32,000 nt of DNA from Candidatus Baldrarchaeum yapensis (GTDB lineage: Archaea; Asgardarchaeota; Baldrarchaeia; Baldrarchaeales; Baldrarchaeaceae). The stretch lies in the NCBI GenBank assembly GCA_016840465.1, contig JAEOSH010000007.1, positions 30,202-62,201 on the forward strand, given 5' to 3'. A program made the translations under genes and the position numbers. A model generated the notes under the pieces. That model worked only from the letters and a program-made list of their open reading frames with translations. It was not told the origin of the DNA and ran no database searches. Positions 8,751-12,489 of the stretch are shown piece after piece (the first letter of the stretch is position 1; every line of letters begins with the position of its first letter).

Positions 8751-9173
8751 GTGTTGAAATTGCTCGATGAACTGGACAAGCGGATTATCGAAATATTAAA
8801 AGAGGATGCTAGGACGCCTTTCACCACCATAGCTAGCAAGTTAGGTATCTCTGAAGCAGCGGTAAGGAAGAGAGTCCGAAGGCTTGTCGACTCCGGTGTC
8901 ATAAAGAAATTCACTATAGAAACGTCTATGGAGGGTGGCGCGCAGGCTATTGTAATGTTATCCGTCAATACAAAAATTCCGTGCCCCGAAATATCGAGGG
9001 AAGTGAGAAAAATAGAAGGAGTACGTGCAGTTTATGAGGTATCAGGCGAATACGATATTGTGGTGTTTCTGAACGGTCCGGATAATGATGCGCTCAACCG
9101 TATGATCGATGAGATAAGAAAAATAAATGGCGTTCTTAAGACGACAACAATGGTAATATTGAAGGCGTGGTGA
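8751..9173 (+). CDS. lysM: Lrp/AsnC family transcriptional regulator, LysM-like
   Basis: HTH DARTPFTTIASKLGISEAAVRKRV plus a RAM domain. The KFTIE, IPCPEIS, GEYDI and ILKAW segments resemble crenarchaeal LysM. Confidence 0.8.
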   Translation: MLKLLDELDKRIIEILKEDARTPFTTIASKLGISEAAVRKRVRRLVDSGVIKKFTIETSMEGGAQAIVMLSVNTKIPCPEISREVRKIEGVRAVYEVSGEYDIVVFLNGPDNDALNRMIDEIRKINGVLKTTTMVILKAW

Positions 9174-10084
9174 GGCCGCTGAAGCCTCATGCACGGGAAT
9201 ACCTAAAAGCAGCAGCGGAGATCGCAGAGAGAGTTCTCAAAGAGGCAGAAAAAATAATAAAACCGGGAATAAAGATAATTGAAATCTGTGAAAAACTAGA
9301 ACAGTTGATAAGAAGGCTAGGAGGGCGCCCCGCGTTTCCAGTGAATATTTCAATAAACGATATCGCGGCCCATTATTCCTCCCCTCCCCAGGATCCAAAA
9401 AGAATACCTCACGGATCCCTCGTTAAGGTGGATATCGGGGTACACGTTAATGGCTATATTGTCGATATCGCAAAAACTCTAAACCTCGGAAGCGGCCTGA
9501 CGGATCTAATAAAGGCAACTGAGGACGCGTTGGAGGCCGCAATCGACCACATCAAGGCAGGTGTTAGGGTTTCGGAGATAGGTGCAGTGATAGAAAGAGA
9601 AATTAAAAGATATGGTTATAATCCGATAAAAAACCTTGCTGGTCATGCAATGGAACGTTATAATCTTCATGCTGGACTTTCAATACCAAATGTTTCGTCA
9701 CCACGCCCTTTGGGCATACTAGCCCCCAAGCTGCATGAAGGAATGATAGTGGCAATAGAGCCATTCGCCACCACAGGAAAACGAGCATATGTTGTTGACG
9801 ATCGCCCCATCTCGATATTTAAACTCACTGAGAAAAAGCCCAAAACAAGGGACGAGTCACGAATTTACTCTTTAATATGCAGGAGATGCCAGATGTTGCC
9901 TTTCTCATTAAGATGGTTTGACGAGATAACCGGATCCGGAAAAGCGGTGAAAACATTTACGAAAATGATATCAGAAGGGATAATTTATGCATATCCCCCA
10001 CTTAGGGAAGTCGATAAGAATCCTGTGGCTCAGGCAGAAACCACCGTGATCGTACATAAAAATGGAGCCGAAAGACTTGTATAG
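9167..10084 (+). CDS. map: Type II methionine aminopeptidase
   Basis: AFPVNIS, AAHYS, KVDIGVHVNGYIVD, GH, AIEPF and E ligand (QAETTV), with the type II insertion. Confidence 0.95.
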   Translation: MVRPLKPHAREYLKAAAEIAERVLKEAEKIIKPGIKIIEICEKLEQLIRRLGGRPAFPVNISINDIAAHYSSPPQDPKRIPHGSLVKVDIGVHVNGYIVDIAKTLNLGSGLTDLIKATEDALEAAIDHIKAGVRVSEIGAVIEREIKRYGYNPIKNLAGHAMERYNLHAGLSIPNVSSPRPLGILAPKLHEGMIVAIEPFATTGKRAYVVDDRPISIFKLTEKKPKTRDESRIYSLICRRCQMLPFSLRWFDEITGSGKAVKTFTKMISEGIIYAYPPLREVDKNPVAQAETTVIVHKNGAERLV

Positions 10085-10480
10085 TTATCGTCTTCTCCTT
10101 CTCCTTCTTCTCCTTCTAGTAATACTTTTCGTAACCTTCTTTTCTTCGGTTATAGGCTCTCCTCTTTCTATTTTCTCCACAATCTCCCTTATGTGGCTCA
10201 TGCTCTTCTCCAAACCATCGTTTCCCTTTATGAAAACACATGTTACTTCCATTTCTTTGATGAAAGCCGCTATTGAGAACTCATCAAACGCAATGAACCG
10301 GGGCTTCGGCTTATCAAGGCTTCCACCCATGAACCACAAATAAATGTTCACGAAGAGGTCCTCTATGTTCACATTGAAGTTTTCATCGAGTTTTTTGACT
10401 TCTTTGAGCACAGGACCCTGCTCTATATCGAAGTCTATCTTTACGATCGCCGCTATGTCTTTGACACCAAACTCAAACAC
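10085..10480 (-). CDS. Small longin/uDENN-like domain protein with a C-terminal poly-Arg tail
   Basis: N-terminal IVKIDFDIEQGPVL (FDxxxGP) and an apparent bb-a-bbb-a hydrophobicity pattern. GTG start directly follows the GTPase stop, with a GGAGGTGA SD. The fold call is by eye. Confidence 0.6.
   Translation of the reverse strand: MFEFGVKDIAAIVKIDFDIEQGPVLKEVKKLDENFNVNIEDLFVNIYLWFMGGSLDKPKPRFIAFDEFSIAAFIKEMEVTCVFIKGNDGLEKSMSHIREIVEKIERGEPITEEKKVTKSITRRRRRRRRRR
10088..10117 (-). repeat. AGA/AGG/CGA low-complexity tract encoding 10 consecutive Arg
   Basis: AGA AGG AGA AGA AGG AGA AGG AGA AGA CGA TAA read directly on the minus strand. Confidence 0.9.
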
Positions 10481-10963
10481 TCACTTCACCTCCAGTGCCA
10501 ATTTTTTGAACTCCTTCATGAGGATGTGATACATTTTCACTCTCTCACGAGGGTCTATTGCCACAAGACCATACGTGGGAACTTCTAATAAATCTTGCAC
10601 ACGGTTCGGCTTCATCGCACCTGGGAGGTCCTGCTTATTCGCAATCGCAATTACACGGTATCCGTCAATTTTCTTTAACTCCTCTAGTATTTTCTTCGAC
10701 TGCAGAACATTCACGGGAGTGCTATCGGTCACCAGGATAACAAGGGTGCTCCCCTTGAGTATCTGGGGCCATAGAGTCCGAAACCTCTCATGCCCCGCTA
10801 GGTCGAAAAGCGAAACCTCATGCTCTCCGAATGATATTTTCCCGAGGTCAAAGCCTATAGTTGGTCTATATTCGAGCGGAGGTGGAGCACCGGTCAACAA
10901 TTTTATTATTGTCGTTTTACCAACCCCCGGTAGTCCCACGAAGCTCACTTTCACTGTGCCCAT
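10481..10963 (-). CDS. Ras-superfamily small GTPase, Arf/Sar-like
   Basis: G1 GLPGVGKT, G2 PTIG, G3 DLAGH followed by ERFRTLW, G4 NKQD in an Arf-like ANKQDLPGAM, and G5 VAI. Confidence 0.93.
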   Translation of the reverse strand: MGTVKVSFVGLPGVGKTTIIKLLTGAPPPLEYRPTIGFDLGKISFGEHEVSLFDLAGHERFRTLWPQILKGSTLVILVTDSTPVNVLQSKKILEELKKIDGYRVIAIANKQDLPGAMKPNRVQDLLEVPTYGLVAIDPRERVKMYHILMKEFKKLALEVK

Positions 10964-11031
10964 GTAGACCCCCTCTGTAAGACCGAACCCATCAATTTAA
11001 GAGTAGGTAATAGTAAGAAAGCAGGGTGAGA

Positions 11032-11367
11032 ATGTTGGAAGAGTACGCCGAGAACCAGTTAACACGACGCGAGAAGATAATGAAGATACTAGAGGAATCG
11101 GACCACTTCATGACGGTAGATGAACTTGCGTATATACTAGAAATCAAAGGAAAGGAGCGAAGGAGGCTATACGAGGACATAACGCACGTTGCCAAGAGCG
11201 TAAGGGCACTCTCGCAGGGAAGAAAGATTCTTGTAATGCAACCCCCTCAATGCAGAAAGTGCGGGTTCGTTTTCACAAACTTAAAAAAGCCGTCGAAACC
11301 TAGAAGATGTCCCAAATGTTATTCAACGTGGATAGAACCCCCAAAGTTCAAGATAGTTAAAAGATGA
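11032..11367 (+). CDS. Predicted transcriptional regulator with wHTH and Zn-ribbon (COG3357-like)
   Basis: TRREKIMKIL HTH start and PPQCRKCGFVF...PRRCPKCYSTWIEPP. ATG 11032 follows a GGGTGA SD. Confidence 0.85.
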   Translation: MLEEYAENQLTRREKIMKILEESDHFMTVDELAYILEIKGKERRRLYEDITHVAKSVRALSQGRKILVMQPPQCRKCGFVFTNLKKPSKPRRCPKCYSTWIEPPKFKIVKR

Positions 11368-11377
11368 AGTTGTATAA

Positions 11378-11713
11378 CTAGAATTTCCTCCTAAGTACAC
11401 AGAGGTACATATCTTCCTCCGTTGCTATAACTATTTGCTTCTCCTCGCCCCTCTCATTTACAAAATCGACTATCACAAAGAGCAACTTGCCCAGATTTAA
11501 CTCGTTGGCGGCCCTTCGTGCCTCCGTACTAACACTCTTCACATGAGCGGCGAGCGCCTCGGCGTGCGAAGTCTTAAGGGTGGACTGTAAGGGGAACCCC
11601 TCGTCATCAACTACAAGTACACCTTCGACTCCTCTTTCACGTGATAAGTTCTCAAGAGTCTTCTGCAAGGCTATCGGCAATAATAGATAACTTGAGTCTC
11701 TCTCGTCGCTCAT
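11378..11713 (-). CDS. Roadblock/LC7 (MglB/LAMTOR-like) domain protein
   Basis: LENLSRERGVEGVLVVDDEGFPLQSTL...AEALAAH...ARRAANELNLGKL is the typical roadblock a-bb-a-bbb pattern. Start at ATG 11713. Confidence 0.88.
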   Translation of the reverse strand: MSDERDSSYLLLPIALQKTLENLSRERGVEGVLVVDDEGFPLQSTLKTSHAEALAAHVKSVSTEARRAANELNLGKLLFVIVDFVNERGEEKQIVIATEEDMYLCVLRRKF

Positions 11714-11841: not shown

Positions 11842-12489
11842 TTGGTTAAAGTAAAATGGCTGGGACACGCATGCTTTGAGATAAAAGGCGAAACTGTAAC
11901 TATAGTTACGGATCCACACGACGGCACATCACTCAACATACCTCGTCCGAAAGCGGAAGCCGACATAGTCCTCGTAAGCCATACGCACTTCGACCACATG
12001 GACGGCATAAAATTCGTTAAAAGGCCCGATGCCGAGGAGATAGTTGCAAAGACGGGAGAGATGGAGATCAAGGGCGTAAAAATAAAGGGAATAAAGAGTT
12101 ATCACGACAAATCGATGGGAAGACAACGGGGAGAAAACGTAATATATGTATTTGAAGTTGATGGAGTGCGATTTTGCCACCTTGGTGATCTAGGGCATAT
12201 TCTGACGGATGAACAAGTGCGTGAGATCGGGGAAGTTGACGTTCTCCTCATTCCGGTGGGTGGCACGTTCACCATCGACGCCCGTGAGGCGTCCGAAATC
12301 ATTGAAATGCTCAAACCGAAGATCGTAATTCCTATGCACTACAAAATAAAGGGACTGAATTTGCCCATATCTGGTGTAGAAGAATTCATTGCGGATAAAA
12401 AGAATGTAGAGAAGATTTCAGGGTCTGAGGTTGAGATAACAAAGGAGAACCTGCCGGGCGAGACGAAGATCATAGTATTGTCAATATGA
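11842..12489 (+). CDS. MBL-fold metallo-hydrolase (Lactamase_B_3/UlaG-like)
   Basis: WLGHACF, TDP, SHTHFDH, HLGDLGH, IPVGG and IPMHY. TTG start after a GGGGTGA SD. Confidence 0.9.
   Translation: MVKVKWLGHACFEIKGETVTIVTDPHDGTSLNIPRPKAEADIVLVSHTHFDHMDGIKFVKRPDAEEIVAKTGEMEIKGVKIKGIKSYHDKSMGRQRGENVIYVFEVDGVRFCHLGDLGHILTDEQVREIGEVDVLLIPVGGTFTIDAREASEIIEMLKPKIVIPMHYKIKGLNLPISGVEEFIADKKNVEKISGSEVEITKENLPGETKIIVLSI

Follow-up and report, generated by a model that had tools for sequence, protein, structure and literature searches.

A Conserved Gene Pair of an Arf-Like GTPase and a Putative GP-Motif Longin Protein in Asgard Archaea

Organization of the Locus

The window analyzed here is a 32,000-nucleotide stretch of the genome of Candidatus Baldrarchaeum yapensis (assembly GCA_016840465.1, contig JAEOSH010000007.1, positions 30,202–62,201 of the forward strand), and the coordinates below are counted from its first nucleotide unless a locus or contig label precedes them. 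The subject is a pair of adjacent minus-strand genes: an Arf-like GTPase gene (10481–10963, 160 aa, Pfam Arf) and the gene of a 131-aa protein, referred to as the partner (10085–10480), with a GTG start (10478–10480) and a TAA stop (10085–10087). Judging from the translation and an AlphaFold2 (AF2) model, the partner comprises an N-terminal domain (N-domain) of predicted longin/roadblock superfold (residues 1–106, 10163–10480) and a C-terminal tail (residues 107–131 plus TAA, 10085–10162).

The stop codon of the GTPase gene (TGA, 10481–10483) directly abutted the partner GTG with no gap, the minus strand at the junction being CTGGAGGTGAAG-TGA-GTG. A strong Shine-Dalgarno sequence, GGAGGTGA (10486–10493, minus strand), was read 5 nt 5′ of the GTG, within the coding end of the GTPase gene. 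An earlier note, made from the sequence alone, had described the abutment, the Shine-Dalgarno sequence in the GTPase 3′ end and several further elements on the minus strand, and all of them were found where it had placed them. The string that it quoted as the beginning of the partner, IVKIDFDIEQGPVL, is present as residues 12–25, not at the very start.

Conservation and Distribution of the Pair

A word-based homolog search with the 131-aa partner alone matched only the partner itself. Relatives were reached via synteny, through genes abutting GTPase orthologs in four contigs, and then by profile. The genes found by synteny were homologous to the partner over its ~100 N-terminal residues, with BLASTP E values of 2e-9 and 8e-20. 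Among the loci found via the partner profile, which belonged to several GTDB families, an Arf-like GTPase gene was located directly upstream on the same strand in 30 of 30. In another, independent scan, which covered named species-representative genomes, the GTPase gene was adjacent upstream in 78 of 80 loci; one of the two exceptions was at a contig end, and in the other (L076) the GTPase gene (7–342) was ~860 nt upstream of the partner gene (1201–1497), perhaps because of an insertion. The gap between the two genes, measured at 35 loci, ranged from −26 to +2 nt, with a 4-nt ATGA overlap in 20 of them, and distant families kept overlapping pairs (by 17 nt in family f28 and by 4 nt in family f29). 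The coupling of GTPase and partner that the earlier note had proposed is supported by this recurrence in both sets of loci. A lack of conservation in relatives was looked for, and the counts clearly spoke the other way.

The partner family was present in 190 of 400 Asgard genomes and was near-universal in some families (123/135 in f20, 14/14 in f19, 5/5 in f13, and all of f15–f18). Two closed Lokiarchaeial genomes, G134 (4.4 Mb) and G137 (6.0 Mb), also have the pair. The family is small and confined, because just ~25 representatives were found at E ≤ 1e-10 among 1.84 billion proteins. The named records were Asgard-labeled or unclassified archaeal metagenome-assembled genomes (MAGs), and their proteins were annotated as "hypothetical." No conserved third gene was found around the pair beyond within-family synteny; thus the unit is the pair. 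No fused GTPase-partner protein was found among the exhaustive profile matches, and the N-domain matches at E ≤ 1e-5 were all 54–199 aa long.

In Freyarchaeota (L002/L003:4601–4972 and L007:4647–5000), the GTPase ortholog (55–56% identity) was followed by OB-fold (oligonucleotide/oligosaccharide-binding; tRNA_anti-codon), PCNA and primase genes. The genes downstream of the GTPase there were considered as partners and rejected as unrelated OB-fold proteins. In family f2 of Baldrarchaeia (L041:273–2328 and L042:4543–5950), a 288-aa protein combined an N-terminal domain of ~115 residues with an Arf-like GTPase in one chain. The GTPase part was 43% identical to the window GTPase, and the gene overlapped by 8 nt that of a 398-aa protein with no Pfam match, with the gene of a 533-aa coiled-coil protein adjoining. 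The 398-aa protein was examined as a possible relative of the partner and set aside: its N-terminus, LLYWDPIEGARIEY, looked similar by eye, and the hhalign score was not significant (E 0.13).

Fold of the Partner Protein

No Pfam or NCBIfam family matched the 131-aa partner. Its AF2 model was built from a 31-sequence alignment and had a mean pLDDT (predicted local distance difference test) of 83.9, with values >90 across the core. The elements were E9–18, E22–30, H39–51, E62–64, E68–75, E78–85, and H91–106 (E, strand; H, helix), an order (β-β-α-β-β-β-α) that the earlier note had already read from the sequence. A full-length member from Helarchaeota, also modeled with AF2 (pLDDT 88.8), displayed the same domain order, followed by a short low-confidence linker and a classical winged helix.

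A structure search had been set as a check on this fold. The top matches of Foldseek (E ~3e-3) and of two VIA-align runs were exclusively roadblock and longin domains. The VIA Z scores were 8.9 for zeta-COP and for LAMTOR4/5, 8.6 for LAMTOR2, 8.2–8.4 for Asgard roadblocks, 8.2 for BLOC-3, 7.8–8.0 for TRAPP longins, 7.4–7.9 for MglB, 7.5 for Mon1-Ccz1, 6.9 for the uDENN domain of DENND1A, and 6.5 for SRX (1nrj). The partner has one C-terminal helix, the second longin helix being missing. In the model, the N-domain clearly adopts the longin/roadblock superfold, and its element order is assigned to the longin type because the N-terminal helix is absent. The longin/uDENN-like partner of the earlier note therefore stood as far as the superfold was concerned and was not supported for uDENN specifically, the DENND1A score lying below those of the matches listed before it. 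A uDENN/DENN module was also rejected on architecture, as the partner has just 131 aa and its family carries a winged helix-turn-helix (wHTH) or another small module and no DENN domain.

A PDB sequence search with family profile positions 1–90 gave no match. The complex prediction for the GTPase and the partner N-domain with paired alignments scored 0.00, which counts neither way.

The GP-Motif Hairpin

Five residues (D18, G22, P23, Y47, and P60) were invariant over 31 diverse members of the partner family. Others were nearly so: F17, F50, and G53 were each kept in 30 of the 31, Lys/Arg59 in 28, and Arg/Lys61 in 25. Positions 59–61 form the loop [K/R]59-P60-[R/K]61.

In the partner model, G22-P23 were the first residues of β2, which is a position of the GP motif; in longins this motif is found at the end of the β1-β2 loop or at the start of β2 (PMC12290439). 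The GP motif has been described in C9orf72, SMCR8, FLCN, and NPRL2, and it is absent from FNIP2, NPRL3, adaptins, and the TRAPP and DENND longins (PMC12290439). C9orf72 has an essential W33-D34 with G38-P39, and Arf1 is named as client of the C9orf72-SMCR8-WDR41 complex (CSW) in the legend of Figure 5 of that study (PMC12290439). GP-motif longins have been reported in Asgard archaea, and ArfR or Rag GTPases were asked about as their partners (PMC12290439, Traffic 2025). The spacing of F17-D18-x3-G22-P23 in the partner is identical to that of W33-D34/G38-P39 in C9orf72.

Longins of the Folliculin family were retrieved from Asgard genomes, 32 of 201 of which had a Pfam PF11704 match above the cut-off. 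They displayed the same FD-x3-GP, and the hairpin that follows their fourth strand carried an invariant R-G-x-x-R. FD-x3-GP thus appears to be a motif common to the partner and the Folliculin longins, short of demonstrated homology. The Folliculin and NPR2 Pfam profiles (PF11704 and PF06218) gave no match to the partner family. NPR2 was found in 19% of the members of the Atlas neighbor cluster of the partner, which is taken as a lead only. When 61 Asgard genomes were searched with Pfam NPR2 there was no match, and since the controls were silent too, the result was uninformative. From these motifs the partner family looks like a C9orf72-type, finger-less GP longin, and [K/R]59 and [R/K]61 could be alternative candidate fingers.

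C-Terminal Modules of the Partner Family

Most members of the family (171–200 aa) had an additional C-terminal winged-helix domain. HTH_DeoR was above the Pfam cut-off in members P0038 and P0043, many helix-turn-helix (HTH) families matched 5–11 of the 31 members, and the C-terminal region of the family profile matched Lrs14-like and MarR-family regulators and Z-alpha domains in the PDB. The order of elements in the AF2 model of this domain was H-H-H-β-β. Two families had a different module of ~80 residues (P0050, P0052, L044, and L045), with a weak match to the N-terminal, helix-hairpin-helix region of PolX (E 0.047). The wHTH profile also matched long proteins with 4–11 tandem winged-helix repeats (P0053, 818 aa, as well as P0063, P0065, P0069, and P0070).

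Like its closest relatives, the window partner had no C-terminal domain. Its tail ended in ten consecutive Arg residues (10088–10117) and was predicted to be disordered, with pLDDT <50 for residues 113–129. The ten codons were AGA or AGG, with CGA as the last, so that the partner gene ends 3′ in a near-repeat rich in purines. P0046, the nearest relative, also had a K/R-rich tail, in which 15 of the last 25 residues were basic. In every member the net charge of the last 60 residues was 0 to +9, and the N-domain was neutral to acidic. Polyanion binding may be the common denominator of these modules, and the sequence matches favor DNA as the polyanion. The winged helix points toward a nucleic-acid-linked output of the pair.

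The Arf-Like GTPase

The GTPase matched Pfam Arf (PF00025) with E 2.1e-19 and 70.1 bits against a cut-off of 22.3, and it also matched TIGR00231 (small_GTP). The best PDB matches of the family profile were Arl3, Arl2, Arl8, and Arf1 (E ~1e-24). The Arf/Sar-like identity suggested for it before agreed with both results. In the alignment, the P-loop (GLPGVGKTT), switch I (PTIGFD), and NKQD motifs were intact. Switch II was FDLAGH in place of WDxGGQ, with His58 (codon 10790–10792) replacing the catalytic Gln, which was kept ([W]D.GGQ) in 21 of 22 aligned orthologs. His at this position is reminiscent of SR-beta and of Sar1, which has His there. The f29 ortholog (L045) also had DLAGH, and its partner likewise had no wHTH.

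An N-terminal amphipathic helix was not found in the window GTPase, which has just four residues (MGTV) before β1; some orthologs had 10–25 additional N-terminal residues. The nearest relatives (50–57% identity) were from Freyarchaeota, Helarchaeota, and Promethearchaeota MAGs. These Asgard relatives, together with same-order proteins that are named Baldrarchaeia by NCBI, agree with the Asgard-like host that had been inferred from the letters of the window. Several orthologs were located amid information-processing genes, namely those for RNA polymerase subunits, ribosomal proteins, SRP19, TFIIB, and Cdc6.

Possible Function of the Pair

We propose, with a probability of about 0.55, that the pair is a conserved, translationally coupled Asgard module in which an Arf/Arl-like GTPase works with a cognate GP-motif longin partner whose C-terminus binds a polyanion. 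The GTPase would dock on the longin platform of the partner in a nucleotide-dependent manner, and the partner may act as a regulator, i.e., a co-factor similar to a GTPase-activating protein (GAP), or as a direct effector of the GTPase. The C-terminal module would bring the complex to a polyanion or hold it there, and this polyanion is most likely DNA or some other nucleic acid. In most lineages the module is a winged helix of the DeoR/MarR type; two families have the other module in its place, and the window has the ten-Arg tail. The output of such a switch would be DNA binding, not a membrane coat.

Several observations weigh against this proposal. Regarding the fold, Z scores of 7–9 do not separate longin from roadblock and, according to the note of the tool itself, may reflect a common arrangement. 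The N-domain of the 31 members matched no Pfam family, and no significant profile link to longin, roadblock, Folliculin, or NPR2 was found. The hhalign comparison of the partner with the Asgard Folliculin longins put the hairpins in register over 27 columns, with E 0.015 and a probability of 3%. There was no conserved Arg finger; the equivalent position 75 was Arg in 8 of 31 members and basic in 19 of 31, and a classical arginine-finger GAP is thus not supported. The polybasic tail or the winged helix may equally bind acidic membranes or proteins. Finally, the partner stood alone in Baldrarchaeales family f2 (L041 and L042), in L043, and in families f13, f14, and f32. L043 is the nearest relative of the window partner and has the partner-like gene with no GTPase gene, and the Freyarchaeota carried a GTPase ortholog with no partner. 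Lone partners and lone GTPases together indicate that neither protein is strictly dependent on the other.

A more ambitious version of the proposal is doubtful: the pair would be a surviving minimal longin-GAP/Arf switch ancestral to CSW, folliculin, and GATOR1, in which the state of the GTPase controls a longin-winged-helix transcription factor. If that were true, the ancestral output of the "nutrient-sensing" switch would be gene regulation, with membrane targeting coming later. Asgard genomes encode dozens of small GTPases and longin/roadblock proteins, the cognate pairs of which are largely unknown, and an Arf-like GTPase coupled to a GP-motif longin in >100 loci is an explicit, testable answer to the partner question. 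The fusion of a longin to a winged helix is unexpected, as longins are discussed almost solely in a membrane context. Confirmation of the proposal would change the reading of the "eukaryote-like" GTPase machinery in Asgard archaea.

Two other explanations were considered for the pair itself. The first, which we regard as unlikely, is that it forms a minimal membrane-recruitment switch, in which acidic lipids hold the complex by its basic C-terminal module. The polyarginine tail would then play the part of a Ras/Rho polybasic region, and the winged helix that of a DEP domain. Eukaryotic Arf-family GTPases and longin GAPs do act on membranes (PMC12290439), and the ten-Arg tail and the net-positive C-termini would be compatible with lipid binding. 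However, the window GTPase has no N-terminal amphipathic helix, and the C-terminal domain matches DNA-binding HTH families above Pfam thresholds and archaeal chromatin and transcription regulators in the PDB. One study describes some Asgard Arfs as membrane-associated when expressed in eukaryotic cells, but many as probably not acting on membranes (PMC11914678).

The second explanation, which is quite unlikely, is co-expression with no complex: the partner would be an ordinary small transcription regulator of the operon or of other genes, with a ligand-sensing or dimerization N-domain, and the coupling would be co-regulation only. Regulators with a wHTH are commonly encoded inside the operons under their control, the roadblock/longin core is also a dimerization module, and the lineages in which the partner occurs with no GTPase gene indicate that it is able to function alone. 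Against this, stop-start overlap over >100 loci is typical of stoichiometric partners, and the fold class of the N-domain is the canonical platform of small GTPases. Moreover, FD-x3-GP, which is invariant and on the surface, corresponds to the motif in the catalytic pocket of longin GAPs, and the forms that have no wHTH, including that of the window, retain the coupling.

Comparison with Known Systems

CSW, FLCN-FNIP, and GATOR1 (NPRL2-NPRL3) share with the partner the GP motif and probably the longin-type fold. The client of CSW is an Arf-family GTPase, and the window partner is likewise paired with an Arf-like GTPase. By analogy, the closest counterpart of the module at the motif level would be C9orf72 in the Arf-directed CSW GAP. 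In contrast to the proteins of these three complexes, the partner is a minimal domain of ~105 residues that lacks the DENN domain, the downstream eukaryotic domains, and the second C-terminal helix. It has neither a conserved arginine finger nor significant similarity to the Folliculin/NPR2 profiles, and it is joined to a winged helix or to a polybasic tail and lies in an operon with its GTPase.

The pair resembles SR-beta and the SRX domain of SR-alpha, in which an Arf/Sar-like GTPase is bound 1:1 by a longin-like domain; SRX was among the structural matches of the partner (1nrj, Z 6.5). On Pfam SRPRB the window GTPase reached 24.9 bits, short of the cut-off of 25 and far below its Arf score. 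Unlike in SR-beta/SRX, there was no NG domain and no signal recognition particle (SRP) context, and the GTPase orthologs mostly have Gln, not His (21/22).

Two prokaryotic arrangements resemble the pair in their gene neighborhood. In MglA-MglB, a prokaryotic small GTPase gene is likewise beside that of a ~110-residue regulator of the roadblock/longin superfold (MglB Z 7.4–7.9). However, the window GTPase is of the Arf/Arl type, and the partner has neither the N-terminal helix of roadblocks nor a Pfam Robl_LC7 match. An Asgard operon has been described that combines the genes of a Rab-like GTPase, a DENN-domain protein, and a LAMTOR1-like member of the roadblock superfamily (Liu et al., 10.1101/2020.10.19.343400), and it is similar to the pair as a conserved Asgard neighborhood of a small GTPase with roadblock/longin-superfamily proteins. 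That operon is made up of three genes, with a Rab-like GTPase and DENN. The pair consists of two genes; its GTPase is Arf-like, DENN is missing, and there is a fusion to a wHTH.

ArvA-ArvB-ArvC (OapABC) is a vesiculation GTPase operon of Euryarchaeota and DPANN, with a small protein downstream in >90% of genomes, an ArvB described as SepF-like, and a Zn-ribbon protein nearby (PMC10927574). The window resembles it in the archaeal small GTPase, the small protein directly downstream, and a Zn-ribbon gene near them (the PF0610-like gene). Pfam OapB (PF09846) and OapC (PF09845) were not found in the window genome, with positive controls in Haloferax and Methanosarcina. An identity with ArvABC was therefore rejected, as OapB and OapC are absent from the window genome, ArvB is not longin-like, and the Zn-ribbon gene is of another family.

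In MK-D1, GTPase genes as a rule do not share operons with genes for roadblocks or longins (Tran et al. 2024), and cognate pairs are therefore difficult to predict. The only longin fusions of Asgard Arfs mentioned by Zhu et al. are N-terminal. A literature search of incomplete coverage found no description of the pair or of the longin-wHTH architecture.

Neighboring Genes

A PF0610-like gene encoding a winged helix and a Zn-ribbon (11026–11367, plus strand; Pfam PF21476, E 3.3e-12, and PF23470, E 5.7e-12) was divergent from the GTPase gene with a 62-nt spacer. Counting the window, it is found beside the partner gene in three genomes of Baldrarchaeales (orthologs at L041:4329–4652 and L042:2224–2541), whether the GTPase gene lies between them or not. 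It is regarded here as a neighbor of the module. On the other side, the TAA of the partner gene abutted the stop codon of the convergent gene for a type II methionine aminopeptidase (MetAP; 9167–10084), leaving no intergenic terminator region.

A Roadblock/LC7 (MglB-like) gene was located at 11378–11713 (minus strand, 111 aa; Pfam Robl_LC7, PF03259, E 3.4e-13, 49.6 bits against a cut-off of 23), and a metallo-β-lactamase (MBL)-fold gene (11842–12489) was divergent from it. The roadblock gene was 0.44 kb from the GTPase gene on the same strand and was convergent with the PF0610-like gene, with a gap of 10 nt. The earlier note had counted the roadblock as a third member of the module and had remarked that a gene on the opposite strand separates it and weakens its link; the intervening gene was confirmed, and the membership did not hold. 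The roadblock and the pair are not on one transcript, because the opposite-strand gene intervenes and the roadblock gene converges on it. No roadblock gene was found beside the pair in any of 110 other loci, nor in the 4-kb flanks of the pair in L001, L004, L008, and L009.

The roadblock orthologs of Baldrarchaeia family f2 (L050, L051, and L054; 53–55% identity) kept the MBL neighbor (68% identity) and were tail-to-tail with the gene of a 193–197-aa MglA-type GTPase (Thermus MglA, E 1.4e-33). In the 2.27-Mb window genome there were nine roadblock genes and 12 Arf-like GTPase genes. Four of the roadblock genes surrounded one GTPase gene on contig C64, and one was ~1 kb from a GTPase gene on contig C83. 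Because roadblock genes are often near GTPase genes in this genome, the proximity of the two is not expected by chance alone. It is nonetheless very unlikely that the three genes form one module, with an Arf-like GTPase, its longin-like partner, and the roadblock as MglB-like GAP or platform: the short same-strand distance and the tendency of roadblocks to adjoin GTPases favor it, but a shared transcript is impossible, other loci of the pair have no roadblock, and the orthologs abut an MglA-type GTPase gene, while the MglA-like gene of the window genome is in a separate cluster of four roadblocks.

To judge from its relatives, the window roadblock is most likely MglB-like and part of this different, MglA-type GTPase system. 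The simplest reading is that a rearrangement joined [MBL-roadblock] to [PF0610-like-GTPase-partner-MetAP] in the window lineage. No MglA-like gene adjoins the roadblock gene in the window, and a true MglA-like/roadblock system exists separately in the window genome. This compact cluster (G000:C64:15537–17712) comprises an MglA-like GTPase gene (C64:16774–17319) surrounded by four Roadblock/LC7 genes. The GTPase shares 49% identity with its MglA-like counterpart in relatives, and the cluster looks like a genuine multi-roadblock/MglA module.

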